Both the position numbers and the translations under genes were made by a program. Shown in pieces: positions 11,726 through 61,675 of a DNA stretch of 64,000 nt. The stretch covers positions 30,008,001 to 30,072,000 of the forward strand of contig CM114271.1 in assembly GCA_050084515.1 (NCBI GenBank), given 5' to 3'. Within the stretch, counting starts at the first letter, position 1. Each line of letters begins with the position of its first letter. The notes under the pieces are model-generated. The model did not search any database and was not told the DNA's origin. It worked only from the letters and a program-made list of their open reading frames with translations. This DNA is from Blasia pusilla (Eukaryota).

Positions 11726-14700
11726 TTAGCATGGGAGTATGGCAGGTTCACAAACATCGTTGAAAAAATTATGACGAAGGGCGTCTTCTGCTGTAATTCT
11801 ACTATCCGGGTCGATCTCCAGACACTTCTCGAGTAGGTCAACTAAGGAAGCCGGTATCTTGCTTTTCATATCAGGCCTTTTAGAATACTTTTCAATCCAA
11901 TCCTTTATTGTCACCGGTTCAAACGTCACAGAACGAGACTCCTGCAATCACAAATTCGTAATGATAAGTCGATCATTCAAAAATCACTACCACCTGACGA
12001 GTACATAGGATTCTCTCTTCGATCACGAGATATACTATTGTACAAACGCACCTTAGAAAGACTATGGTGACGATTGTGTTTTGCAGCAAGGCGCCAAAGT
12101 TTGTCAGATCCACGCATCTTCGCAATGTCCTTGAGGGCACTGCGCAAATAACAGTAAGAAAGACCGGTAAGGCACACAGAGAAGTTTGAAGCCGTAAACG
12201 GGATGTGACGTCATCGCCGTGTAGTTCACTGACCATGATCGTAGTAACAAATCCCTACAACTACAAGACGGCTGCCATGCTGACTAAATTTAAAAACCCG
12301 TAAAGCTTCCCGACTCAGGAAAGTGGGCATAATAGTGGGGCCTCAAGTTCGATGTCCAAAGTAGAAGCAAACCAAGGTATCACAGAACAGAGCGAAGGCA
12401 AATGCTACCCGTGACAACTAAAAGATAAGTCTACCACAGGCACTAACCCATCCGTGCTTGTTGAAGGAAATGGTGATCTTCCGGTTACCAACTGCAGCAA
12501 ACTCACTCCAGCCGACCATATGTCAACCTTCGTTGTCTGCTTAAATGACATCAACAGCACCTGTTTTGATTACAACATAAACGGTAGAACGATGACGCAA
12601 ACGGATAGGTTAGAAACCATCTCGCAAGTTAAACTAGCAGTCAAGCAAATTGGACAGAGACCTACATCCCTCGCCAGTCTTACAGCTTAGATCTCACAAA
12701 GGAGCAGAGATTTCGTTTTTTCTTGTACAAATGAGGTTTGCCGGGTTTGCTTAAGTTTGGTGGACCTAGGCAAAACCGCTTAACTTCGTAATAAGAAGGT
12801 TGTGAATCAGACAAGAAGACACAAAATGATTGATGACTACAATGAATATTTAGGAAAAACTTAAGCTCGAGGAAGGATCATCGAGGGGAGAGACCTCGGG
12901 AGCCCGGTATCCTTTCGTTCCAACACATGGTCCGTCTTTAACAGCATGGCCAACCCCTGCAGGAAGAACTTACGTCAGCAACCAATGTCTAGTATAACTG
13001 GTCAGTTGTCAAATAACAAGGTCGATGGGGAGATTTAGGTAACTTTCCAAGAGCCTACACACTAATCCAATTGATTTCCGTACTTGACGAAAATCCCTCC
13101 TTCTCACCTCTTACTTTCGGGGGTATCAACGCTTTGATCTGTCTGATATTTGAAGCTTGGGCTTCTTGTCGTAGGTCTCGAGGAATTTCGCCAGTTACGA
13201 GTTTCTTCCGATTGTTAAGTGCAGCCACTACCCTCTTTCTTCCCGATTGAGGGACGGAAGGCACTGGAGGTTGGTGATTGTAGACATTATCCGGACGAAT
13301 GTTATTTGCCCGCATATACTTGAGAATGGCAGGGTGCCCAATCTGGGGCCTAGGGGTTTGTGCCTGATTATTCTCCCGAGTAGAATCTGATACGTGGGCT
13401 TGCTGGGAAGCTCCGATATCCATGATTTGATTTGAAGCCCTCGGTGATTCCTGCACGTTGAGGTAGCAGTCAAAACTAAAAAGACGCAGGACATCACCAG
13501 ATTGAAGCTTCACTTCCAAGGCGTTACCGGCCTTGGAACAAAAAGAGACAGGGCAAGTACGGCTTCCCCATCAACACGGGAGAACGTGGACTACAGCAAG
13601 AAAGGCCCATAGCAAGCTAATGCTCTTGAAGGAAGTTTGGATGCGGATCAGTAAAAATCAATTAGCTGAGGAGCTATCAATACACTACATGGGAAGTACT
13701 ACACGATATAGATATTGTAATGAAACTTACCACGGGTTTCAGTGAAGAAGTGTTAGCTGCCATTATAGAGCTTGATTTAGGTTTGGCGTCATGTCTAATT
13801 CTTGCAAACGAAGTTTTGAGCTCCGCAGTCACACTGTGGGCTATCTTCTTATTACTTTGGTCTTGCAGCACAGCAGGAGTCTTGGCTGGCGACGGAGAAC
13901 TGGAGGATAAACAAGCGTCCATCAACAGGCGACTGCGTTTCGAAAGATTTAGCGGACTGCTTGCTGCCTCCTCCTGCAGTAAAGGTCTCTTTGCAGCTCT
14001 TTTCGCGTCATTTTTTTCTAGAACTGCAGTGATCCGTAGTTTCTTCAGTCTCTCTGTAGATAGAAGACGGTCAAAACCTTCAGACGAAGCAGCTGGAAGT
14101 CATTTACCTATCGCAAAGAACATGATAAAGTGATCATGACATTATGATGATTCCGCGTTGCACCTAATCACTAAATTCGTATGTTGAGGTGACTTGTTAT
14201 ATGCATGATCTCTGTTACACACCAATTGGGACGGACTCTAACAGGGCATCTAAACTCTATTCACAGCCTATATTACGTATTCCATTGCTCCACCTTCAGG
14301 TTTGAAAATGTAGATGGTACGTACTGGAAGGTCGGGACGTTTCATCCTGCAAGAAATGCAAACAGAAAAGAGGGGGTACTGTACATCAGCAAGCATTCAG
14401 ATCCCCTGAGGCATAACCTAGACAATGTCTTCCATCGGATGCGACGCAACACATTGGTGCACAATTTCAAGAGCAGAATTTCATGAGCAGTCAAAACTCT
14501 ATCAAGCTCTTGAAATCTCTATAATGGCAGCTAACACTTCTTCACTTTCCAGTCAAAACTAACTAGTCGAGCACGCAAATGGGGCATCCCAAACAACTCC
14601 ACGCCATCTATCTTATGGAGTTTCTGGTCTCGATTTCTCACATTAATAATATGCATACTATACTCGACCTGTGATCAAACAGTAAACACTAAGATCAGGA

Positions 14701-35444: not shown

Positions 35445-35894
35445 CGTCACATATTTTAGGATAGATCGACAAGTTTATAATAGAGCGCCTTCAAGGATAT
35501 TGGAGGAAAACCTCATGAGATCAATGACAACATGTTGGGGCATTGGGTAACTTGAGAGGGCATGTTTCTCCTTCGTTTCAATCGATTTGGAATCATGAAG
35601 AGAAACTTACTATTTTTAGTAAATTGTTGTTATGAATATAGTTGACTTTCTATTTTGGGAAGTGATGCTCGACCCTCTATAACGGGTCAAGAGCCAAGGA
35701 GATCCTAAACCCTAAACCTACGAGCATAGGTTACCATGGAGAGAGCTCGAGAGAGTGAAGGGGGTATACCCAAGGAGAGAGCGTTAGAGCTCATTCTCTC
35801 TTTTTTGAATCTTTTGGCATGAAGCGGCGGAGCTATGGTCCTCATGGCCATGTGAGTAATCGAAGCCTCGGATTACCAGACTGGATTTCGTTAC

Positions 35895-35940
<46 letters not shown>

Positions 35941-36060
35941 CTTGTGTGCACTTGTTGAGTGATCTTGATTTAATTGCATATATTTTGGTGCTCGATTATC
36001 TGGATGTTTAGATGCCATGAGTTAGTATGGTATCTTATATGTTTGTGTGTATACTCGCAA
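35445..36060 (+). mobile_element. Diverged solo terminal repeat (B+A) of the DNMT-bearing retroelement family, inverted relative to 49584-50226
   Basis: Colinear with the reverse complement of 49584-50226: GTCAC..TTTTAGGATAGATCG, GTCAAGAGCCAAGGAG, GAGCATAGGTTACCATGGAGAGAGCT, GCGGAGCTATGGTCC, and then the A segment GATGCCATGAGTTAG. Confidence 0.75.
35897..35936. repeat. (GA)20 microsatellite inside the solo repeat
   Basis: Direct reading. The related copies carry only a short GAGAGAGA at this position. Confidence 0.95.
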
Positions 36061-43176: not shown

Positions 43177-46088
43177 TGTTGCGGAAGCGTATGTTTAGTA
43201 GGGCATGCTCTCACTACTGACTGCATCCAAACACAATCCCATTAATCTGGTCTAGATGAATTAGCCTTCCAACTCACTGAATTCTCAACTCGGCACTCCA
43301 TCAAGCTCAACCTTCCTAGTTTCCCACTTTCCAACGCAGGTTAGTCTTTTGAGACTTGGGACACACTTTCTAGATATTCCAAGCATCCAAAATGATGTTC
43401 GCATGGCGGGCGGTCCCAACTATCCAATAGACCTCATATGAGCCCCTAAAAAAGATCCACTTAAATGAGTCGCAAGTTGGAATCCAAAAGTGGCCTCCGA
43501 AATCCACTCTATTGGACTTGGTTTGGGTTGCGAATCCTAACGCCAAACTTTCGATCCATTATGTGCCTTTGGTTCGCCCCACAACGCCCCAAAATGGGGT
43601 TTGAGTCCCAAGCATTCCTAGATACCTTCCCCCTTACTAGTACTTATGGGTTTCTCCGCCCTCCCCCTATCTTTTGGGAAAAAATTCTCGACCCTTCTTT
43701 TCGGGCCTCAACCCAACTCTGTGTATGGTCATTTTGGGCAGTTTCTCAACTTTTGTTTTTGCATTTTCTAAGATCTTTGGTGCTTTAGAAGTGGCTTTGC
43801 ATGAGCTTTCCAACGCCATCCTACTCGTTGGAAAAAAATCTTGGAACTAAAAGTTATGGTAAAAAATATAGACAAAACCCCAAACACTCATCAGGTTCCA
43901 AATCTGGTTCTCACCTCTTTGGAAACCACTCTTCCTAGACTCTACTCCTCTCAAGTCTCAATTCACGTTTGATTAAGGTTTCCTAGTTACGACCATAGAC
44001 GCATGTAATGCTCAACCTTGTTTGCGTCTCATATCGTGTGTCTCCTTCAAGAGACCTCTCTAATGTGCAAACCATCCTAGTGTGAGCCCACTACAGTTCT
44101 GATATTCCGCTTAACGCTCGTTTGGTTATGAGGGTCATGACACTTATCCCTCGTTAGAGATTGATTCCATCATCAACGACAACCTTCTAATGTAAAGTAT
44201 TTTTGGGAAGTTGATCCTTTGACATCAAATTGCATTCTAATAGCAAACCCATAATTCCTCTTTTGGCTCAATTCTTAGTTTGTTGCATCGGCCACTTAGC
44301 ATCTTTTAGTATCTCCTCTTCGATAAGTCTGGATCAGTTATTCGAAACTAATCTAACCTATCAAATAAGCTAACTAAGTCTGCTACCTAAGACTTCTCTT
44401 GCTTATGACTCGTAAACATCCCACATGTTTACAAGGTCCACAAGTCATACTACTTTGGGGTCGCTCTCATATTCGACTTTTGTGTGTCATTAAGTTCACT
44501 CATGCTATCACAAGTAGGATCACCCCAAGCCCCAAGATAGAGTGATATGCGCGCCGATGCTAGGGTGAGCCCAAGTGTTAGTCACCTAACACTTGGTCCT
44601 ATTCTAGGTGCTTATCCAAGATCTCATCTCAAATACTCCTTGTCTCTCCTCTTGACTTACATTCTAAGCATATGAGGAACTAACCATTGCCATGCACTAC
44701 CAAAACCAAATTGCAATCAACCACTAGCATCCGAATCCATGCATTCTTTTATTGCAACACTAGCCTGTTATAGTCACAATAGCCTTTCGCCCGAACTTCC
44801 TATGGTCACAAGTCATGTCCCTAGCTACTTCAAATACTAACACATGTGCTTTTCTTACATGCGCTTGAAGTCTCGTGACAACTCTTGCTTATATTCCAAA
44901 TCTTCGTCTATAATCCAAGTCACCTCTTTCATATGGTAGCCCTTCCATTTGACCAAGTACTCGTACTTCTTGGCCCATGTCTCAAACAAAAAATGGTCTC
45001 CACCTAGAATTCCGGTTCCTTGTTGACGATCACTAGTTGTAGTGTCAATACTTGCCTTCGCTCGGGATGCACATTATCTTGAAGATACTTCTTTAATGGT
45101 GACAGATGGAAAATCAGGTGAATCTTGAACTCTTCTAGCAACTCCAATGTATAAATATCCTCTAATGGGTTTGCCTTGATCACATACAGTTCAACATACT
45201 TGGAAGACACCTTTGTGGAAAACTCTTTCTGAAGAGTGAGATTCTTCACACTCAACCACACTAGCTCCCCTACTTGGAAACTCACTTAGCACTGATTCTT
45301 GTTAGCATGCTTAATGTACCTTAGTTGAGCCTTTGCAAGACTCCTTCTTTTCCCCCTTGTTTGGCTCTCGCATCTCCATTAACAAATCTTATGTAGTTTC
45401 TTGTTGGTTCCATGCCGATGTAGTACCCTTCGAAAGGGCCAAGTCCAGAGGCCCTTCTAGCTCATTTAAGTGGGTTTTGAATCTCGACGCCATACTTCCA
45501 ATCCATTTTGTGCCCTTGGTTCACCCCGCGGCGCCCCAAAGTAAGGTTTGAGTCCCAAGAAATCTTGCAGACCTTCCCCTTTACTAGTACCTCTAGAGTT
45601 CTCTACCCTCCCCCTATCTTTTGGGAAAAGACTCTCGGCCCCTCTTTTTGGGCCTCAATCCATCTCCCCCTATAGTTGTTTTTGGACAATTTATCATCTT
45701 CACCTTGTCATCTGTTAAGATCTTTGGTGCGTTAGAACCAACTTTGCATAAGATTTCCAACGCCACCTTACATATTCTAAGTACATCTTGGGACTCAAAG
45801 AAAAAATCCAAAATATAGTCTAAATTCCAAACTCTAATCACGTTACAAATGGAGTTCTCACCTCTTTGGCAGCCACTCTTCTTAGACTCGACTCCTCTCA
45901 AGTCTTGGTTTATGTTTGGTTTAGGTTTCCTAGTCACGACCATGAACGCATATAACGTTCAATCTTGTTCTTGTCTTATATCTTGTGTCACCTTTAAGAG
46001 ACCTCTCCAATGTGCAACCATCCTAGTGTAAGTCCACTAGAGTTCTAATGTTCCGCTTGGCGCTTGATTGGTTATTAGGGTTGCGACA
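43177..46088 (-). mobile_element. Internally deleted chromoviral Ty3/gypsy element (full 3' LTR, integrase C-terminus/chromodomain, partial 5' LTR)
   Basis: LTR 43177-44142 (TG...CA) with adjacent PPT-like GAGGGATAAG. A second, partial LTR copy at ~45470-46088. GPY/F region FQVGELVWL...IHLIFHLSPLKKY (45004-45285). Chromodomain KKYEYLVKWKGYHMKEVTWIIDEDL (~44895-44971). Confidence 0.8.
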
Positions 46089-48930: not shown

Positions 48931-49583
48931 AATCTTTGGGAAGTATTTGGGCTGAGAATTCTACCACCACCAATGTCCACCATCCCATTTCACAATTTTC
49001 TTCTCCTCCAACCCTACTTCTATTAGAGCTCAAACAAGTGTCCTTAAGAGGAAGAGCTCTATTTTAATCGATAGTTTCCCACTTCGGATTGTGTGGAATT
49101 TTCCTTTAGTTTGATAGAGTTTCTAGTAGATTTCCAAAGAGTTTGACGAAGTGAGTTGTCATTGCTCTAGCCAATGACAAAGAAGAATTTGCGTTGGAGG
49201 ATTTGAAAGTCCCATTCTCTTCGAATTCGTGCAAATTAAAATGTGAAGAGGGCATATTGCTTTCCTCGCTAGCATTTTTTGCTTACCTCTTTGATTAACA
49301 CCAATTTCCTCCACTTGGTCACCATTAGTTAAGATTTCCCGTGGACTCCATATCACACGAGTTGTTGCATTGCAATTCAGCCAAGACCATTGGATGCTTT
49401 CCAACATCTATTTGTCTGGGTTTTATTGATCCATGATTTCAAAGCTCATGATAGAAAGTGAGATCACAATTGAGAGAAAATGTCTTCTTATTGTACCAAA
49501 AAACCTACAACGAGTGTTCATGACCAATTGGGAGCAATGTGGTCCCTTGAAAGAAGAGTTGTGATCTTTGTTCAAATGTGGAC

Positions 49584-49709
49584 TGTCGTGCGCATACACA
49601 TCACTATACAACATACATCATTGTCACCCAACACACACACAAACACACACGATCCCAGGCTAACTCATGGCATCCAAATAACGAGACAAGAAGTACCAAA
49701 ACATCTCCA
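49584..49709. repeat. Terminal repeat segment A, outer copy
   Basis: TGTCGTGCGCATACAC...GCTAACTCATGGCATCCAAA...GACAAGAAGTACCAAAACATCTCCA, repeated at 50229-50345. Confidence 0.85.
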
Positions 49710-50226
49710 ATTAAAATAAGATCCAATCTCTCTCATAACACCATAGTTCTCACATGTGTGCACTCTCACATGTCTCTCTCAATGTCAAATCAAACCCACT
49801 CTCTTAATGAGAGGCTTGGGCTACACTCACAATGCAAGGGACCATAGCTCCGCTGCCTCGTGCCAAGAGGTTCAACAAAAAGAGAATGAGCTTTCAAGCT
49901 CTCTCTCCTTGAGATATACCCCTCCCTTCTCCCAAGCTCTCTCCATGGTAACCTATGCTCCCAAGTCACCTCCTTGGCTCTTGACTTGATGTAGGAGGTC
50001 AAAGGCCACTTACCAAAAATATAAGTCGACCATATACTCAAAATAGTACTTACCTAAAATAGTAAGTTTCTCAATATGGCTACAAATGAGCCGAAACGAA
50101 AGGGAAACCTGCTTTCTCACGTTTTCCGAGGCCTCAACAGGTCATCCTCGACCTCTTGAGCATATCCTCCACTACTCGCGAAGGCACTCTACTACATCTC
50201 AACGATATATCCTAAAAGACGTGATA
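49710..50226. repeat. Terminal repeat segment B, 3'-side copy
   Basis: Aligns with 59444-60011. About 11 differences in a 165-bp stretch compared by eye. Confidence 0.9.
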
Positions 50227-50228
50227 AT

Positions 50229-50345
50229 TGTCGTGCGCATACACAACATACATCGCTGTCACCGAACACACCTACAAACACGCACGATCCCATGCTAACT
50301 CATGGCATCCAAAAAACAAGACAAGAAGTACCAAAATATCTCCAA
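50229..50345. repeat. Terminal repeat segment A, inner copy, next to a PPT-like tract
   Basis: Second copy of A. On the minus strand it is preceded by TAGGGGGGCGAT (PPT-like) and begins TGGAGA. Confidence 0.85.
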
Positions 50346-50526
50346 TCGCCCCCCTAGTTGGTGGTTAGGTCCCTCTAACTCCAGATAGCCATGTATCCCT
50401 ACCTCCCATGACATACATCTCTCGGACACTAAGAGCAAGAAGGCTGGGTGCTCATGTGGCCCCGTCGTTAGTCGCCTTCTTGTCATTAATGTCACAGACA
50501 TAAGTCGGAATGTAGAAATAGCTATG

Positions 50527-50670
50527 CTATGTACATCTAGGACACATCCATCTTCCTTGAGGAATCCTAGTGAGAGGTGGCGTCAAACATACCATATGCC
50601 ATCCTCTCGAACATCCATCACAGACTAGCATAATGGCTGCACCACGGGCAGAACCACACAACATACATCG
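50527..50670 (-). pseudogene. PHD finger (C4HC3) at the integrase C-terminus
   Basis: RCMLCGSARGAAIMLVCDGCSRGWHMVCLTPPLTRIPQGRWMCPRCT*, with all 8 zinc ligands present. Confidence 0.9.
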
Positions 50671-50829
50671 CAAGCCTGCAAAAACTATTGCTAAGCTCGG
50701 ATCAAGTGTATCATCAATTTTTGGAATGTGACACGACATACAGTTACGCACATGGTCCTTCCAAACCATACCATCGCTTCCCTCCAATAAGAGAACAACT
50801 GATGGCGAAACCTCATGCACTCTCAAGAT

Positions 50830-51800
50830 GGTGCCCTTCAGTCACATCCAACGACGTGGATGCCGTCTGCTGCAAGTAGACATAGTCTCCCTGATGAAAC
50901 CTCCGGATAGTAGGTCGATAACCACCTCCCCATATAGTTGTATACCTCAATATATCCCGATGTTGCGCAATCGCCAAGTTCTCAAATGCCATGGGCATCA
51001 CTCTTCGAAACAATTAAGCCCTCTGAGAATATGCTTGCATCCATACATTAGGGTCATTAAGGTTCAACACCTCACCAACATCTTGACGAATGGCTGCAAG
51101 TAAATCACGCTCTCGGCAATACAAAAGCAATTATGGTGAGAAAGACGCTAAGGATGCCTGCTTGTTGAATCTGTGTCCCATCGCCAACCACGACAACTGG
51201 AGGTCCCAATCTCCTATGTGACCTCTCTACAAGCCATACTTGCGTAGTCTTCTCTTCACGGTCTGCACAACCCGCTCCGCTAGTCCATCCGCCTCAGGAT
51301 GATCTCGCGAAGTAGTGCAGTGGTCGATCAGTGCCTGATCTTACAAGGCCTGAAACTCCCCGCGGAACTCTGTACCCTGGTCTATCAACACTTCAGCTGG
51401 TGCATCGCAATGACTTAGCACTTGATCTAGGAAGGAAAATGCTACTCCCTCACTCGCTTTGTCAAGCAATGCAACCAACTCTATCCACTTTGAGAAGTGC
51501 TCGACCATCACCAACACATAATGACTATGGCGCTCTGTAAGAGGCAAAGGTCATGCAAAATCCAAACTCCATATATAACCTAAACCCATGATTGGAAATG
51601 GATGCAACTGTGGAGTTGGAGCATTGAACGATGCTATGACTCGATCACACACCATGCATCTGGAAACAAACTGGTGAACGTATGTTTGCATGCCTCGCCA
51701 CCACAACTGAATGTGGAGCAAGCTGTACGTCCGCTTCACTCCAAAATGACCCAACTCCTCCTGGGCATGACGCACCAAACGTGCTCTCTACGAAGGATGA
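50830..51800 (-). pseudogene. DDE integrase (H2C2 zinc region + rve core), disrupted
   Basis: GHFGVKRT...WWRGM...RCMVC; WSLDFA*PLP; VMVEHFSKWIELV; VLIDQGTEF; TTSRDHPEADGLAERVVQTVK; FHQGDYVYL. Confidence 0.9.
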
Positions 51801-52230
51801 GGCACTACACGCACTCTACCATCCTCCCACACTCGCACCACATGTGTCCCCTCCCATCAGAATCGTCTTGCTCGCTGTAGGATTCGATCCAGCTCCCTAG
51901 CACCCACTGTGCTCACGACACTGCCAGTGCGCATGTACTCCAAGACCACTCCATCGTCGTGAATATCTCGGCTACCTATCGTATCTTCATCAACCTTTGG
52001 ATCTAAGGACTCTACATCAAACCTTCCCATCGAAGTCTCAAAGATTTGGCTCTCCATAGCCAACAAGCCCAAATAGGCTGACGCATGCCATCCTGGCACC
52101 AACTCCCCATCAATCTCACCATGCCAACGAGCTCAAGTCGTATCTCGTTGACTCGGACATGGGTTACGGCTCAAACTATCTGCATCCTGGTTGACCGTCC
52201 CAGGTCTATGCACACTTGGAAGTCATACTC

Positions 52231-53500
52231 CTATAACAAAAGAGCCCACCTCGCAAGCTTCCCTGTAAGCTTGTGAGACTCCATCAACCACTTAAGTGGC
52301 TGATGATCAGTATTGATGGTAAAAGGATTGCCAAATAGATAACATCTAAAATGTGTGACAGCCCACATTGCAACCAAGCACTCACCCTCATAAGAGTTAT
52401 ATTTTGCCCCTGCAGCGTTGTTCGAGCAACTAGCATAAGCCACCACAAACTCTCTACCATCATCGTCATATTGGGTGAGCACGGCTCCAAGCCCCAACAT
52501 ACTCCAATCAGTATGGAATTGGAAAGGACGCCCCTTGATCGGTCTCCTCAATATGGGCACGGACGTCAATCTATCCTTGAGCATATGAAATGATATCTCC
52601 TGTTCATCCTCCCAGTGCCACTCCTGATCCACCTTGCTCAGCAAAGTCAGCGGCTTTGCAATGAAGCTGAAATCCTTGACGTACCGTCGATAGAAGTTTG
52701 CCAATCCCATGAATGCACAAACTCGACTCACATCTGTAGGGCGTGGAATGTGTGAAATAGCCTCTACCTTCATCTGCTGCACACCAAGGCCACCTAGGTA
52801 TATTGTATGACCCAAATACTCAATCTGGTCATAGAAGAACTTGCACTTGTCTGGATGTAGCTTCAGTCTATGTAACTGCAATCGTCAAAACACCTCAGCT
52901 AGGTGTCGTTCATGCTCCTCAACTATGGCGCTAAAGACTGCGATGTCATCAATATAACACCTAGCAAAATCCAGACCTACCAAGATCCTATTTATGACCC
53001 TTTCAAACTCGGCCGGGGCGTTCTTCAACCCAAATGGTAAGAACCGCCAGTGGTATAAGGAATCCTTCATGTGAGGATTGATGCCCAAAAATGCCGTCTT
53101 CTGCATGTCCTCCAATCTGATAGCTAGCTGATGGTATCCGGCTCAAAGATCTAACGAACTGAAGACCTTTGCATGCCCAATTGCATCAAAGATCTCCTCA
53201 AGAGTAGGCATGACATACCTATCGGACTTCGTCTATCGATTGATAGGTCGATAATCTCCACACATCCACCTATCTGTCTCGTCGCCATGCACATCCTTCT
53301 TGGCAGGCATGATAGTGGCAGATGCATACTCTTCATGCGACATCTCCACTAGTCCTGCTCCAACCAAGTCTTGGCTCCTACTCTGAATCAAAGCCCTCTC
53401 CATGTCACTTTATCTGTAGGGTCGTCAGAAGATTGACGTGTCCCTTGACAACTCAATGCGGATCCTTGGATCCTTCAGTGTACCCAAATCATGCATACTA
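52231..53500 (-). pseudogene. Reverse transcriptase and RNase H, disrupted
   Basis: MCGDYRPIN; FSSLDL*AGYHQ; FLPFGLKNAPAEF; YIDDIAVFS; FHTDWSMLGLGAVL; YNSYEGECL; TDHQPLKWL; KLARWALLL. Confidence 0.95.
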
Positions 53501-53934
53501 AATGCAAAACAACACCTATAACTCCTAAGGAACTGGTGTATCCGGCGCCGCTCTCCTCTTGTCAACTTAGGGCTCATATCTTGCTGCCAAAAGTCCATCG
53601 TGACAACGGTAGGACTCTCCGGCGCGGGTGTCGGTGGTTGCTATAGTGCAATCCCATCTCGGACAAAAAAATTCGACTGCTCCCCTACAGTCAACTGCAA
53701 AATCGGATCTCCATATGCAGTACCCGGAACCACGCTCGATGTTGTGGCTACCATCTCCTAGCGTACCGGCAAAACATCCCAAGGAGTTCAAGGGCGTCTC
53801 TCCCAATCACCCTTGGTGTGTCAATCTCCTCGAGTCTCGCCCCCAGCCATTGCCTCAACCATCTCGGTAGGCATGGGGCTCACCAACGCAACTGCTGTGA
53901 TCTATTGCATCCCAAAAGGACAATGCTCAGCTAT

Positions 53935-54890
53935 TCCTAAGCTGAAAATCCATGTTAAGTAGTTCAGGTCCATCGCCTGACCCAAGACATCACATTGTGA
54001 TGCCTCTGAAAATGAAGGTTCTACCGTCACTCATGTGGGGAATCCCATCGCTCACTCTCGCTCATCGACGTTGGGCTCTACCAACCTCTGTACGTGGTCA
54101 TCCCAAACCAAGCCAGGTCCGGCCTCCTTGAATGTATAGGAAGCGGGAAAACTCACCAATGTGGGAAAGGTTGCCCATGGTATGCCAATCCTGTTGAGCA
54201 TAGTCAACGGCGGTCGATCATCTAGCCTCATTGCGTATGATCGATGGCCCGGATCCAATATAGAATCCACCAACAAATCGGAGGGGTGCTCCACTCTCGC
54301 ATATGCCCTCCGCAACACCTCGTGTGGTACCAAGTTGGTCCACCAAAGACACAGGCGATGTGCTCATGAACCCACACTTGACGCATCCAACAAAACTGCC
54401 GGGTCGATTCATGCGCGCACCTGATGTGCACTTGTCACCACACGGGACCTCGAATCGCCCAAAATTGGTACATTTTCCAGAATGTATCCTTCATGACGAG
54501 ATTGATGCTCCTGCAAGTGTCGCAAGATCCGCATCATCTCCCAAAACAACGTGGACCGAGAGTCAGCTAATACGCTACCCCGTTCAGCACTCGACTGGCC
54601 CTGATATGGCCAACCAGCAATGACCAAGTTTATGGTCCCTACCCGCTCTGAGTCCTGCGCCCCCAACAATGAAATGTCCCTCAGTAGGGAACTCTGGTAA
54701 CCCTGAATGGCGGACCCAGACAACAAGTCAGGAAAACAGAGGCACAACTTCGCTATATGGTGAAGTGAAGTGCGCCTCGCAACATCATCAATCTCCACAT
54801 ACAGGTACTGTTGCACACGCACTCCACTTTGCAAAACAGCAACTAATCCAGCACTGATCCCTCCAAAGAGATCCAACACCCGAATACCCT
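53935..54890 (-). pseudogene. C5 cytosine DNA methyltransferase domain (DNMT3-like motif order) within retroelement pol, disrupted
   Basis: Motif I RVLDLFGGI (~54857-54882). Motif II YVEID. Motif IV LVIAGWPYQG, where the catalytic PC is PY (codon 54604-54606). Motif VI YILENV (~54469-54486). Motif VIII S*AHRLCLWWTNL. Motifs IX/X ERE*AMGFP...VLGQAMDL. Same frame as the RT ORFs. Confidence 0.85.
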
Positions 54891-55299
54891 TCTCTAGGAT
54901 CCACCACAAAATCGGGGTGGTATCCAAATGGGTCATAGCAAATCTCTTGGCTACCTTGGGTCCCTCTGACCCGTCACACTCTGGTGCAAACGTCTCGCTC
55001 CACGCGGTCTACACATGCTCAGTGGCTAAGCGTCGAAGCTCCTCAATCAAGCCCCAAAGAGGCACCTCTCCTCCACTGATTGATGTGGCTACCATGACAC
55101 TCCTCTCCATAGAAATGTGAGGAACGAGAGTATCCTCTGCATGGACATATCCCTCAATCAAATCACTAGGCCAAGTGATGGCAATGCTAAATGCTCCTAA
55201 GGTCGCCATCTCTCCTGGCCGTCGCTCGATCACTGTACTTGTGAATCAAATGGGTAATGAGCTAAGGCGTCCATCACCTGACTGCCATCATGGTCTCGA

Positions 55300-55610
55300 G
55301 GACCCTGACTCCTCCCAATAATCCAAGGAAAACCCCATCGGATATAACACTGCTCCACCAACCAAGACGTCATAGGACACTGCATCAGTCACTATCGCCT
55401 TGGCTCGCACCACGGACTCATCTGTAGGATGTCTTGGGAAAATCCTCACCATGACCTCATGTCGGGTGATATACTATATGGTACTCGCTCTACCCAAGGA
55501 TGTCTGTATCCGGAATGGAAAACGCTCCACATCGGCTCTCGTCAAGCCCAATCCTCTGAATGACGCTTTCCCCAACATAGGGGTTGCGCTCCTGAATCCA
55601 ACAAGACGCA
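55300..55610 (-). pseudogene. Retroviral-type aspartic protease, frameshifted
   Basis: Active site VLLDSGAQPL (~55580-55608). Downstream DAVSYDVLVGGAVLYPMGF. Confidence 0.75.
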
Positions 55611-56239
55611 TTGCGGACTAAAAGGTGTTCCTCATGGACTCACCAACTGGAAGACCTCTCCCCAATTATCCAGCAATACAACACTAAGAGAAGCCATGGC
55701 ACGCTCTATCATGGGTCTAGCGGGCATCTCCGCCATCCTAGCAACCGCAGCCTGCCATGAATCTGACGTGGACGGCCTGAGCATCCGCTCCAAGGGCACT
55801 TCCATCATCTCCTCTACAATCACCTCCGAATGTTATGCATGAACTACAATTCCACGCTCACATAGCATAGCAACCAGCCGGAAAACCTCGACGGACGTAC
55901 CCCCCAACGTCATAACATCAGAAGAAGTAAATAGCGGAGCACAGTACACCATCGTGGTCACCCCCAACATCATACTTGACACATGCTCCTCATGAGCATC
56001 AACAATAGGAGTCACAATACTCGCTTCTCCCATCGCCCTCCATGCTTGCATACCAATAACATCACCAACTCTATGGGAACTCTGATCACGATCCATCGAT
56101 GGGGTCCTCATTGCCTCAGACAATGTGAAAGATTGAGGAAGCCTGGTCTGTTTCTTGGCTTCCCCTCCTTGTGGATCCAACTCTACGACTGCTCCATGCA
56201 TCACAATTGCAGCGACCTCCATCTGGGCAACCACGCACA

Positions 56240-57697
56240 TTCAACCAGGATCCTCCATATCTCTAGCAGCTCCATATGATATCAATGCCACGGATTCGTC
56301 ATCGGGTAACCTCAATGCCATAGCGGCAATGTGCTCATGTAGCTGCTGTATCTGAGCAGCCATCCCAGCCTCACGCTTGACATCTCCCTCAACGCATCTA
56401 GGTGGTGGGACTCTATCTCCTCCACGGGCAGCTCCACCACCCTGTCGGGAAACTCTAGCTCCTCGTCCCCCAACGAGACCACATAGTGCATGATCTCTGG
56501 GCCCACTCGGACCGACTACTCGCTCTGGTGCCCTCTTTGTCCCTCGGTCCGCACGTAACTCAGGGTGTAAAGTGAAACACCTGGCACGTGTTTGACCATA
56601 CCTCTGAAAATAGTCACACTCAAAATCTTCCGGTGCAACACCCTCTACTCCTCCATGCTGAGGCACACGTCCATGACCTAGACGAGTGCAATCACGCTCA
56701 TGATGGGCTCCACCACATGACCAACAAGTAATTGTAGGCAGCTGCTACTGAGCCGCATATGCATGCGCAGGTCTCTGTGGCATGGCTTCGCGGTATCCTC
56801 CCTTAGCTCGTGGTGCCACAGTCGACCTATCTCGGAGTCCACTTTGCTGCATTGGTGGTGCAAACAATCGTGACTTCTCTCGCCCAGAACCCATGGTGGC
56901 TACGCTCTCCTCCGCCATGTTGCGCTCAATGTTCTTGGCGGTCCTAAAAACATCTCTCAATGTAGGCGAGGTGTTCATAAGAAGCACCCCTCCTGCACCC
57001 TTGTCCGCAGGGTCCGATCCAGCATGGCGTACCATGACTCGATAGCCTGAGCCTCTGTCACCCCCTGAGTGACGTTGATCAACTGACGCAAGCGAGTGTA
57101 AGCCTCACCCAAACTCTCACCCGGGTGCCTCTGGAAGTTGTGGATGCTCTGCAACTTCTCCGTCCGTACCGCGTGGTAGCTCGTCCTCAACTCAGCGAAG
57201 AACTCAACCACGGGGTTGAACCTGGGATGAACTTGACTAGACGGTGAAACTGCTCCAGTGCAAGTGACCCCTCCTAAAATATCACTAGTGGAAGAGGAAG
57301 TAGCCTCTTCTGACTCCTCCTCCTCATATGGGAACGGCTCCGTCAATGACACATAGTGTGGGTCATAGTAGAGTCGCCATGCCTCAATCTCCTGGGCATA
57401 TCTGTGGGAGAACTCATGGTAATCGTCAATAGGCGCCCCCTCTAAATGCTAGAACAAACCGTTCCATGCTGTAAATGGGTTGAACGCTATAGAGTTCCTA
57501 GCCTACTGTGAGTCACACCAACTCCTAAACTCCACAATGAACTCGTGTAGCTCTAAAGTGCCTACAACACCCGAAAACCTACGCGGTCCTCTACCTTGGT
57601 CGTCCATCTCGTGCGCCAAACTGGCAGGACTACTTAATATGTATGGTGGATCACCAACACACTCCTCTACACCCTTCCCCTTGTCTGAAGACGACAA
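56240..57697 (-). pseudogene. Retrotransposon gag with degenerate zinc knuckle
   Basis: MSSSDKGKG...PRRFSG; FQRHPGESLGEAYTRLRQL; CDYFQRYGQTRARC (decayed CX2CX4HX4C). Confidence 0.8.
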
Positions 57698-59443
57698 AGA
57701 AGGAGATCGAGGTGATCTCTCACGTGGAGACCCTCGAAACCTCGCACCATTCTAGGTTAACCCTCCAGAGCTTCTCTCAGGTCTACTACCTCGCCTCTCA
57801 AAATCCCAAAGGATGCCGTGATGGCCCTGGTACCCCTCTTACACGATCACTCTCAATCTAGCAAGTAATCCCTCAATCACTAAAACTAAACATGCGACAC
57901 TCAATCTACACTCTCTCACTGAGACGTGTGTTGTGCAGCAACAAGCGGTGCGGTCTGATAAATCAACAGATCTATCATCTCATCGACGAACCATCCTCAA
58001 CTCTAGACATCCCACACAAGTCTATGTCCCCTAAACCCATATATCATTGCTGCTCTCACCATCAGCACAAAACCCAATATCCCAAATAACTTCCCAATAC
58101 CCAGATATCCCTCAGATGTGTAGGGTAAGAGACCAGAATGGGTAACCTGAAAACAATGTCGATGTCGCTCCTCGACAACTGCAAATCTCGACCCCAACTC
58201 GGTCGTGAAGACAAATCCTCCAATCAGCAAGTCGTACTCCTCCCGTACTGATGCTGATGAAACCTCCTCGATGTGCGATGCACGTCCAGTGGTCCAATGC
58301 GGCACTGGCAGCACGGAACGGCTACAAACGGCATGGCACTCGGGAATGGGATGCGGCACTCGGTGGCATATCCTCCTCAATCAGCAATTCACACACTCTG
58401 CTCCTTAGTGAAGGAGCGACTCCGCGATGAAGATGGTGTGGTGTGGCCACGAGTGGCCAGCGCGACAATTAGCGGCGCGTTGCGGTTACGGGCAACACGG
58501 CACGGTACTCGATCGTCGTCGAGTGGCTACCAATCACAACATAATAGCACGAAATGAAAATTCAAACTCCATAGCCCGAGGTCACCTGCCATCACTGGTT
58601 GTTGACGAAACTGCGATGACAATAGCGACCAAAACAAAGTACATGGTGGCGACGCAAGTCAGAAAATCAATGGTCATCATGGAAGACCCTCCACTCTGTA
58701 ATGGCGGCAATGGCAACCAAGGGTGGACAATGGCCAAAAGCAGCTCAGAGTAGTGCTAGGCGGCGGCAGCGGCGGCGGCGGACGACAATAGACGGTGGAT
58801 GGTGAACCAATGATGTTGACGGTTGACTGTTGATGGCGTACTATTGACGATGACTATGGCGGCAGTGGCTGCCGCCGGCGCCGTGGCTGGTTTAGGGTTT
58901 GAACAATTTAACCCAAAAAATCGCCTAACAATGGAAAATTTTTCAAGATTGACCATAAGTTTTTGTTTGCAACTCCAAATTGTGGATTTTTTTTTTGCAC
59001 AGCATGCACAACTTCACGATCTACGACAACATCAAAAAATAATTTGAATTGGATCTTCCAATAAAAACGTACGTGGACTGTTGTAATGCACAACGTCTCT
59101 TTCTCCTACACAAAATGTGGCAGCGCTTCCGGGCTGATTTCTCCCAACGAAACTGTAAAACTTGTGAGAACACAAATCAAGAAGCTACATGGTACTCCCA
59201 AGAGCACCGACATGGAGCAATCTTCCCCCATACTCAATTCCTGTCGAGAATTGGGCAGCGCTTCCGTGTGCCTTTCTCCCGTACAAAATATCAGCAAAGC
59301 AAAACAGCAAACTCGCACGACTCTTGCTCCGATGAGCACTCCCATGAGCCATGAAGTACGGAACATGGTCCCCCAACCTGCACCAAACATCGAACAACCA
59401 GCTAGCTCCCCCATCAAGCTCTCTCACTCACTCATTCTCTTTT

Positions 59444-60011
59444 TGTAATATAAGATCTAATTTCTTGCACAACACCATAGTTCTCACATGTGTGCACTCA
59501 CACATGTCTCTCTCAATGTCAAACCAAACCCACTCTTCTAATGAGAGGCTTGGGTTACACTCACAAGCCAAGGGACCATAGCTCCGCCGCCTCGTTCCAA
59601 GAGGTTCAACAAAGAGAGAATGAGCTCTCAAGCTCTCTCTCTCCTTAAGTATACCCCTCCCCTCTCCCAAGCTCTCTTCATGATAACCTATGCTCCCAAG
59701 TCACCTCCTTGGCTCTTGACCTGATGTAGGAGGTCAAGGGCCACTTACCAAAAATATAAAGTTGACTATATACTCAAAATAGTACTTACCTGAAATAGTA
59801 CTTTTCTCAATATGGCTCCAAATGAGCGGAAATGAAGGGGAAACCTACTCTCTCAGGTTTTCCGCGGCCTCACCAGGTCATCTTTGACCTCATGAGCGTG
59901 TCCTCCACTAATCATGCCTCAGAAGGTCATCTTCGACCTCCTAAGCCTGTCCTCCACTAATTGCAAAGGCGCTCTACTAGATCTCAACGATCTATCCTAA
60001 AAGACGTGACA
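59444..60011. repeat. Terminal repeat segment B, 5'-side copy
   Basis: TGTAATATAAGATC...CCTAAAAGACGTGACA. Contains a ~49-bp tandem duplication (~59870-59965) that is absent from the other B copy. Confidence 0.9.
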
Positions 60012-60408
60012 TGACAATTAAACCTCTAACATGAAATTCTCGAAATCCTTGGAGCATAAAGAGTGGCATTGAAAGTAAGTAGGTTTTTCTTGTCTTGCCC
60101 TAGTTTTTATACTCTTCTTTCTTTACCCAAAAACTTTTGGTCTAGATTCTTACAACACTTGCAATGATTCTTGGCGCTTGCTAGCTCATTTGCTTCGTCA
60201 AGCTAATCGACATTCTATCACATATCTACATACTTTAGATGACTATATGAGAATAGTTTGAAGCCACCCTTCTCAACTACAACTTTTCTTTCTAAAGCAT
60301 TTTCTAACATATGATGGAAGAAACCGATGGAAGATGGAGAAACTCAACCAGAGCTCTAATGTAAGCAAGTGTCTCGTCCCTTTTTTTTATAGAATTTTCC
60401 TCCCAATT

Positions 60409-60518
60409 GGGAAAATCCTCTAGTTAGAATTTGATAATTATTTGTGAATTTGAGATATAGATGTTGTTATAAAATGGGAGCATCTAAAGTGAACAAATTC
60501 TAACTAGAGGATTTTCCC
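60409..60518. mobile_element. 110-bp MITE with perfect 25-bp TIRs and AATT flanks
   Basis: AATT|GGGAAAATCCTCTAGTTAGAATTTG ... CAAATTCTAACTAGAGGATTTTCCC|AATT. Confidence 0.7.
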
Positions 60519-61568
60519 AATTGCATATGGACATTAGTTTGGTTCGGAAGCCGATAGCTAGACACACACCAAACGCTAATTTATATGTAGCAAATTCTTC
60601 ATAATCCATAACATAGACTAAAGACACACACCATATGTTAAGAAATAGTCATCACCGCTACTTGTATGCATTCAAAGGGCGTCCAGAAAGAGACACGAGA
60701 AGCTATTCATCTAATTTGGTTGGATGAACTAGCTGTGTAAAAAAAATATTGCTTTCAATGTAATTCTACGCAACGTAATCATTCATGATACAAAGCGAAA
60801 CAAAACAACAAGGATCGATGTGTTGAAAATCTATCGAGACATGTGGACAGAACAGATGGAACAAAACTTGAGCAATGGATATTAGCTCAAACATCCATCG
60901 GCGCTGATAGGTCTAAGAGGGTGTGAGGAAAGAAGGCCCTTCTTGTGCCAACAAATTTTGGGTATAATAAAGGCCACGATCTCGTGAAAAAACAAGGACT
61001 CTAAGCAAATGTTCCCTGAATCTAATTGTTTCAAATTATTCTCAATCATAGGATCAACTTTTAAATCCAACCTAATGTCAATGTCCCTTGGCAATGATTG
61101 CTGCTAGCCCATGGAATCGACCCCTTGGGGAAATTCAAACTTACCTATGTCTAAGGTAGCTTATATCATGATAGAGGCCACACACATGATTTTTTTCATT
61201 ATTGATACATGTTTATTTAAAAAAATTATGAGAGCTTTTTATGTTAAATGGAATAGGAAGATATCCTCTTTTTGGGTGTCACAAACGATCTCCATAACCC
61301 CAATGGGGTATCTCCTTCGGTACCTAGTTTAGATGTACAATGAACTTTTGTAAATAGTCCTACAATAACTTTTGTAGGATGCTTTCAAATGCCCTACTAG
61401 ATGAGTTCCATGAATTACCCCTATATGGTTTTATGAAAACTCTCACAATCTTGCCCTTTTGGTCGTTTGCTTTGCTGTCATTCCACATTTATCCCCATTT
61501 CAAATATCGAACTTTTGAAATTGAGTCCAATAAGACATGACCTACCAGAAAAAGTCATGAATCTGGAT

Positions 61569-61675
61569 TTCATAGAGTTGGAGTATGGAATGAAAATCTC
61601 CCATAATGGTAATCAATACTTTGAGTATTAATTACCTTTATGGGAGATCTTTATTCCACACTCCAACTCTATGAA
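61569..61675. repeat. Long inverted repeat/hairpin (52-bp arms, 3-nt loop)
   Basis: 61569-61620 pairs with 61624-61675 with 5 mismatches. Confidence 0.9.

Follow-up and report, generated by a model that had tools for sequence, protein, structure and literature searches.

Split Direct Repeats on a Gypsy-Type Retrotransposon of Blasia pusilla: Probable Integration from End-Joined Complementary DNA at an Inner Attachment Site

The Element and Its Repeats

A stretch of 64,000 nucleotides from Blasia pusilla (GenBank assembly GCA_050084515.1, contig CM114271.1, positions 30,008,001 to 30,072,000 of the forward strand), referred to as the window, contains a retrotransposon with the protein domains of a Gypsy element and an unusual order of terminal repeats. 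Two full direct long terminal repeats (LTRs) bounding the integrated element are absent; instead, the order B-internal region-A-NN-B-A was found, in which A and B are repeat parts and NN is a spacer of two nucleotides. Coordinates are positions in the window; the element lies on the minus strand, and its parts are given in element orientation. The split layout is real and is found throughout the family and its clade. It is proposed here that the element quite probably integrates from complementary DNA (cDNA) whose ends have been joined and which is opened at an inner attachment site, so that the ends of reverse transcription and the ends of integration would be uncoupled.

The split repeats had been claimed in a first-pass annotation of the DNA, and self-BLAST and direct reading bear them out. 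The left end of the integrated element is B1 (59446..60011), which starts with TGTCAC and is predicted to hold the RNA start, R and U5; as claimed, no copy of A was read upstream of it. Directly after B1 follows a 15-mer (59431..59445), the putative primer-binding site, which is not of the tRNA type. At the far end of the internal region, a polypurine tract (PPT; 50347..50355) adjoins A1 (50229..50346), which would be the start of the LTR as formed by reverse transcription (A-NN-B) and ends with CACGACA. An AT spacer (50227..50228) separates A1 from B2 (49712..50226, delimited by self-BLAST), and the inner attachment site, CACGACA-NN-TGTCAC with a 2-nt spacer, spans 50221..50235. The B2|A2 joint (49705..49720), predicted to be a join of two cDNA ends and here of the one-base-longer type, leads into A2 (49584..49711), the right end of the integrated element, again ending with CACGACA. 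By self-BLAST, B1 and B2 are 90% identical over 469 bp (E 4e-180), and A1 and A2 84% over 128 bp (E 1e-35).

The outer ends read TGTCAC...CACGACA and the inner joint reads CACGACA-AT-TATCAC, in agreement with the claim of TG...CA ends and of an A/B junction resembling two joined attachment ends. The flanking GTCA (60012..60015) and GTCC (49580..49583) form a 4-bp target duplication with one mismatch. The order of the repeats thus stood as annotated, but their borders had been placed one or two bases off: the CA that follows B1 is part of the primer site, and A begins with ATTGG. B1 also holds an extra tandem unit of about 50 bp (59962-59914) which is missing from B2 and from other copies.

Coding Content and Classification

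The internal region contains a broken gag-like region (56244..57751) with a CCHC knuckle near 56726-56688, followed by a frameshifted aspartic-protease-like region (55290..55610) with a DSG motif near 55598; both names are putative, since motifs were read and no Pfam match was obtained. Between the protease motif and the reverse transcriptase (RT), inside the Gypsy pol, a C5 cytosine methyltransferase domain was identified (53938..55008; PF00145, E 1.1e-5; tblastn to residues 3-324 of P0028, E 2e-34). It is followed by RT and RNase H (52234..53620; RVT_1, E 1e-11; RT_RNaseH, E 5e-30), by a DDE integrase with an H2C2 finger and an rve core (50830..51787; PF17921, E 7e-13; PF00665, E 5e-7) and by a C-terminal PHD finger (50533..50667; PF00628, E 2e-11). 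The methyltransferase, RT-RNase H and integrase regions are all broken by stops. The rve score of 30.3 is slightly below the cut-off of 32.6, and the D, D, E triad can be read directly in the window copy. To judge from its frames, which hold many stops and shifts, the window copy is an old, dead and decayed element.

No tyrosine recombinase family was matched in the 77 stop-free window frames of at least 60 amino acids on both strands, in agreement with the earlier statement that the element carries an rve integrase without a recognisable tyrosine recombinase. None was identified in 37 frames of the relative L242 either, nor among the families shown for three intact relatives. A chromodomain was not matched in the element, and a tRNA scan of the window gave no hit. 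The methyltransferase domain and the self-primer described below were absent from the first-pass account.

The order protease-RT-RNase H-DDE integrase, with the protease assigned from its motif only, is of the Ty3/Gypsy type, and the RT-RNase H region is closest to Gypsy-type proteins. The TG...CA ends with a duplication in the range of 4-6 bp, the primer site after the 5' repeat and the purine tract before the 3' repeat are also those of Ty3/Gypsy elements. However, primer site and purine tract frame A-NN-B and not the integrated ends. On sequence, the element is therefore a Gypsy element by its proteins and, because two full bounding LTRs are absent, not a canonical member by its structure. 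It very likely belongs to the Gypsy-DNMT3 kind.

The Layout in the Blasia pusilla Genome

For the 3' ends, 40 of 9571 candidate places were scored, the window copy being one of them, and all 40 match 766-817 of the 817 bases of PPT-A-B-A in one piece. All 30 loci fetched for the 5' end begin at a TGTCAC-like B with no A directly before it. Exact genome-wide counts gave at least 461 inner A-NN-B sites, 445 joints of B to the primer site, 1000 B|A joints and 1152 PPT|A joints, with 0 for the reversed controls. Conventional paired LTRs in other copies had been named beforehand as the sign of a one-off rearrangement; the other copies proved to share the split ends. As to the suggested check for misassembly, a public raw DNA run contains the B-to-A joint in about 400 short reads, and A ends run into mixed flanks, so that the joint is confirmed for the family. 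Depth over the flank of the window locus itself is only about 1, and its own ends are thus unconfirmed by reads.

Some derived forms were also identified. Solo B-A units (L165, L167, L177, L289 and L301) are flanked by 4-bp duplications, exact in four and with one mismatch in L165, and are expected from recombination between B1 and B2. One locus, L020, has a B-internal-A form that stops at the first A and is flanked by an exact 4-bp duplication; it may derive from recombination between A1 and A2 or from a cut at both inner sites. Three B starts spaced 1036 bp apart were considered as a rolling-circle array and rejected, being a local duplication of flank, B and leader. A loose-pattern match to A-NN-B-primer site (L296) was also rejected, the upstream letters being host DNA.

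Target Duplications and the Inner Attachment Site

Of 39 elements followed, 18 had both ends in reach. The 4-bp duplication is exact in 9 of these and within one mismatch in 16, so that the imperfect candidate annotated at the window locus represents the rule of the family. Duplications of 3, 5, 6 or 7 bp gave no exact case, and shuffled 4-bp pairs gave 0.6 exact and 1.9 within one mismatch. Unrelated target sites with a fixed 4-bp duplication, and TG...CA ends, are marks of a DDE integrase. An A or T was noted at the third base beyond the 3' duplication in 40 of 43 cases; on the 5' side the figure is 20 of 31, and since the pattern is not mirrored, no preference is claimed.

Each outer end corresponds to one half of the inner site CACGACA-NN-TGTCAC. 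If both strands of this site are cut after CA, recessed CA ends with 5' overhangs of 2 nt result. The inner spacer is always 2 nt long, with the letters AC in 19, AT in 12, GT in 12, GC in 8 and other or unread letters in 8 of 59 sites. A special origin of these letters, from a heteroduplex or a donor flank, was rejected: they require 14 and 16 changes on the tree, while ordinary CHG/CpG columns require up to 19, so that the decay of methylated sites suffices for the variation. A tandem insertion was likewise rejected as the origin of the inner site, since the 4-nt A/B spacer which it predicts gave 14 matches versus 8 for the control. It is B|A that looks like the new join; A|B, with its fixed spacer of 2 nt, has the look of an attachment site that is templated and inherited.

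The B|A Joint

The types of the B|A joint were scored on the first 100 of the 1000 matches. The short type, in which one A is common to both tips, accounts for 71 joints, a type one base longer for 23, and 6 joints carry 2-24 extra letters. In these six, the extra letters copy the primer site: four joints have 2, 2, 4 and 11 extra letters, one has all 15 and a single letter more, and one has all 15 followed by the last part of the site once again. The joint of L093 retains letters of the purine tract, and L016 lacks 39 bases of A. As a control, the joint of B to the primer site has a single length in 98 of 100 cases; the joint of the purine tract to A varies, by eye, within its G run only. Also by eye, both joint types are found with both alleles of a nearby subfamily marker. 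Since remnants of the primer site and the purine tract arise only where the tips meet, the B|A joint looks like the fossil join of two cDNA ends.

The Self-Primer and Expression

Not tRNA-like, the 15-mer that follows B1 is reverse-complementary to a stretch within B (59610..59624), which is predicted to be both the self-primer and the 5' end of the RNA. Among 58 5' ends, 38 have a perfect complement of 10-17 nt, and its distance from the end of B is nearly always 174-182 nt; a control stretch never exceeded 8 nt. In a minimum-energy fold, an RNA starting at the 15-mer would fold back onto 59445-59431. These features match self-priming of the Tf1 type, which is the predicted mode of priming. 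With such a self-primer and a purine tract directly before A, the standard LTR route would produce A-NN-B LTRs at both ends of the cDNA, whose tips would then differ from the integrated ends.

In three RNA runs of one study, most of PPT-A1-B2 is covered to a depth of about 45-350 on one strand, versus 0-17 on the other; for a library of the usual stranded type, the stronger strand is the sense of the element. With 85-95% identity in most reads, the signal is that of the family and not of this copy. The B|A joint is spanned by 6, 7 and 6 reads in the three runs.

A Second Family and Relatives Elsewhere

A second family with the same split layout was identified in the Blasia pusilla genome. It is larger, with 1982 exact B starts, and younger, with A1 and A2 97-99% alike at the three loci checked. 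Examples are L278/L279, L292/L291, L300/L299 and L308/L309. All 4 paired elements have exact 4-bp duplications, and the 30 B starts examined include no mirror form of the layout, as defined below. The primer site differs in sequence from that of the window family and has its own complement of 12-13 nt about 166 nt from the end of B. Junction letters of this family appear as loose ends in RNA reads.

From metagenomes, 80 loci were collected, and the 47 of at least 7 kb were examined. Among these, 4 have the full B-internal-A-B-A layout, 8 have a 3' A...A pair (two being near-identical), and 4 have ordinary LTR pairs. The split relatives carry the same kind of CA-NN-TG site and a self-primer complement of 9-15 nt. 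In a quick RT-RNase H tree, which left out L242, L260 and L237 with their short matches, the window element falls into a clade of 32 rows (SH-aLRT 94) together with 9 split or A-B-A rows, liverwort proteins and three Klebsormidium proteins, for which PF00145 is not listed; the 4 LTR-pair rows and the chromodomain rows lie outside. The split layout occurs on separate branches of this tree. Among named proteins, those of Calypogeia (76%) and Marchantia (71%) come closest. Viral contigs yielded no relative. Also among the relatives are P0065, a polyprotein in which a thymidylate-kinase domain accompanies integrase and PHD finger, and P0058/P0059, a DNMT-PHD protein close to Tetraselmis sequences. 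The clade of the window element may reach the chlorophytes. The window copy is best explained as a decayed member of a streptophyte Gypsy clade of the Gypsy-DNMT3/PHD type.

Proposed Route of Integration

In the proposed route, the RNA would start in B at the 15-mer and prime itself on the site after B1, as in Tf1. Ordinary reverse transcription would then give a linear A-NN-B-primer site-internal-PPT-A-NN-B, whose tips lack attachment sites. The right tip, which is the end of B with sometimes a leftover copy of the primer, would be joined to the left tip, the start of A. Finally, the integrase would open the CA-NN-TG site before the primer site with a 2-nt stagger, giving the usual recessed CA ends, and B-internal-A-NN-B-A would be inserted with a 4-bp duplication.

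The joined molecule carries two CA-NN-TG sites. Opening the one before the primer site gives the observed form, and opening the other predicts the mirror form B-A-NN-B-internal-A. No clean mirror form was found: 9 matches to its pattern were obtained versus 582 for the observed form, 7 of which are chance host flanks and 2 partial run-on forms, and sampled loci gave 0. Because the mirror product is not found among the genomic copies, the opening is taken to be one-sided. For the joining step, a template jump by RT on the plus strand is tentatively favoured, because the growing 3' end would lie at exactly the used site, which would account for the one-sidedness. Ligation into a circle with two LTRs, combined with a biased choice of site, is a less likely variant. 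At one locus, L193, host DNA is followed by A-GC-B-A-GC and part of B; the copy starts at the left tip of the cDNA and continues past the second A, and it could be a read-through of the joined form.

The first-pass annotation had explained the layout by a circle of two tandem A-B LTRs opened at an internal A|B site. The self-primer, the primer remnants at B|A and the fixed 4-bp duplication speak for this idea, but a plain symmetric circle predicts the mirror form. Its A|B site does appear to be the place of opening; the junction newly made, however, would be B|A. Extended to the whole plant and algal Gypsy clade with methyltransferase and PHD finger, the proposal is that the integrase sites have moved into the middle of the LTR and that integration occurs only after the tips have been joined, which seems somewhat likelier than the opposite.

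Several observations weigh against the proposed route. The circle and the cDNA ends are reconstructed from genome sequence. On a star-like tree the joint types carry no signal of inheritance, with 15 changes versus 13.8 when shuffled, and the spacer, for which inheritance is expected, carries little more, with 24 versus 26.6 and 10% of the shuffles as low. Within one element, B1 and B2 are 0.933 alike versus 0.916 across elements, and the own partner is the best match in 4 of 13 cases. Read starts show no pile-up in the three RNA runs. Among four metagenome relatives, the target duplication is exact in one, off by one in another and not evident in two. At 1 of 30 inner-site loci (L089), A-NN-B is followed by the primer site, as in an ordinary shared LTR. 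Murine leukaemia virus (MLV), to judge from titles cited in PMC1180852, integrates poorly from circle junctions or inner attachment sites. As to L089 itself, its internal region is followed by A, the spacer, B and the primer site; A and B contain long expansions of TG and GA, and the locus looks like two elements sharing one repeat.

Alternative Explanations

The order of the repeats is also that of PAT, Ngaro and VIPER (PMC9210276, PMC6681497), and the element might be copied as these are, with an RNA that reads through B2 into A2, a B-internal-A-B-A form rebuilt by strand transfers, and an integrase that only processes the ends. The small number of RNA reads across B|A and the two simple types that make up 94 of the 100 joints would fit such copying. 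It is nevertheless improbable: the primer site after B1 and the purine tract before A1 are placed as in the ordinary LTR route, the six extended joints hold primer-site pieces of five lengths and one joint holds letters of the purine tract, and each joint type occurs with either allele of the subfamily marker. Split repeats are otherwise a mark of elements with a tyrosine recombinase, and such an enzyme, own or borrowed, could integrate a circle while the DDE integrase is a passenger. Given that no such domain was matched in the frames of the window, in those of L242 or among the families shown for the three intact relatives, and that the ends and duplications are of the DDE kind, this explanation is very improbable.

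An ordinary LTR element might also have had its ends scrambled once, by autointegration, by tandem insertion and deletion or by recombination, and have then been amplified unchanged. Nested and deleted copies are common and L089 has a shared A-NN-B repeat, but a tandem insertion leaves the 4-nt spacer, which hardly exceeds its control, while the 2-nt spacer was counted at least 461 times. The layout is moreover present in the second family and in metagenome relatives, fully in 4 and partially in 8, it occurs on separate branches of the RT tree, and the ordinary mechanism would put A at the left end of every new copy; a single scrambling event is thus highly doubtful, about on a par with the tyrosine recombinase or only slightly above it. 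An assembly artefact, for which the low read depth over the flank of the locus could be cited, has a negligible probability in view of hundreds of independent loci, each having flanks and duplications of its own, of raw short reads that cross B|A and of independent metagenome assemblies with the same layout.

Other Repeats in the Window

A diverged solo B-A copy lies at 35447-36050 on the plus strand, with about 70% identity to B2-A2 and an eroded A end. A pair of direct repeats (43524-44142 and 45471-46088), about 1947 bp apart, about 79% alike and both ending with GACA on the plus strand, is perhaps a small LTR-type element. Three structures resemble miniature inverted-repeat transposable elements: a perfect 30-nt inverted repeat just outside the 5' end of the element (60404-60523), a pair of 33-nt terminal inverted repeats around 740 bp (13741-14546) and a 52-nt hairpin (61569-61675).

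Comparison with Known Systems

A split layout on a Gypsy element is already known from one figure legend. For KnitGypsy-Dnmt3 of Klebsormidium nitens (de Mendoza et al. 2018, PMC5890265), the legend of Fig. 4c gives the repeat structure of DIRS and the domains of Gypsy. Like the window element, KnitGypsy-Dnmt3 has a C5 methyltransferase inside the Gypsy pol and, by the text of the legend, DIRS-like repeats; the parts of that account available to us are silent on its ends, on the length of a duplication, on a primer and an inner attachment site, and on the mechanism. The three Klebsormidium RT-RNase H proteins, which may or may not be KnitGypsy-Dnmt3 itself, share the clade of the window element. 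A 2026 preprint (10.64898/2026.05.21.726589) refers to streptophyte Gypsy-DNMT3. As to a published mechanism for split Gypsy elements, this legend was the only source found; Repbase reports, theses, subscription papers and bioRxiv supplements may describe the ends.

Among other unusual Gypsy-like elements, Troyka (PMC12440569) was considered as a match and rejected, since by that account it has ordinary LTR pairs, CG...CG ends and 3-bp duplications and is confined to animals. In Chlamydomonas Gypsy-7a, a PHD finger and "LTR subparts" are present, although its legend gives two nearly full LTRs (PMC9940879). Tf1/sushi elements and Tcn1 share with the window element a primer site complementary to a stretch inside the LTR (PMC4600332, PMC6317226). 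According to PMC11042837, Tf1 cDNA tips keep copies of the primer-binding site and the PPT, and RTs including that of Tf1 are described to clamp 2-nt overlaps in vitro (PMC3035444). In contrast to the window element, Tf1/sushi and Tcn1 integrate by their cDNA tips and have two full LTRs, and Tcn1 belongs to the chromovirus clade.

Whether an integrase of the retroviral type inserts from a joined circle is an old dispute, with foamy virus and HIV-1 cited for it and MLV against it (PMC1180852). The foamy-virus integrase is reported to cut a joined CA..TG palindrome in vitro, giving ends with a 2-nt 5' overhang (PMC1180852), and for HIV-1, cleavage of the junctions of 2-LTR circles by integrase has been described (PMC1905944, PMC4372172). 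As in the proposal made here, an integrase opens a palindromic CA..TG joint and yields processed ends. In these viruses, however, it is at the join of the cDNA tips that the integrase cuts, by a route that is debated or minor as far as these sources go, whereas in Blasia pusilla the site would be a separate, templated inner one and the route looks obligatory. A natural family with more than 1000 joints seems to depend on the joined-end route and has left the evidence in the genome; in 390 Mb, the two families together account for 1000 B|A joints and 1982 B starts, all of them exact matches, and the named liverwort relatives include Marchantia. Tools that require two full LTRs will miss or mis-delimit such elements. 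If the proposal is true, this is an LTR retrotransposon with an obligatory circle-like intermediate and one fixed side of opening, in which each insertion records its own end-join.

PAT, Ngaro, VIPER and TATE have the same X-ORFs-Y-X-Y arrangement of split direct repeats as the window element, and, by the same accounts (PMC9210276, PMC6681497), they encode a tyrosine recombinase, in contrast to the DDE integrase, TG...CA ends and 4-bp duplications described here. If the proposal holds, the element would have arrived at the layout of PAT and Ngaro by means of other enzymes, and this suggests that split repeats are, in general, LTRs that were opened at an inner site.

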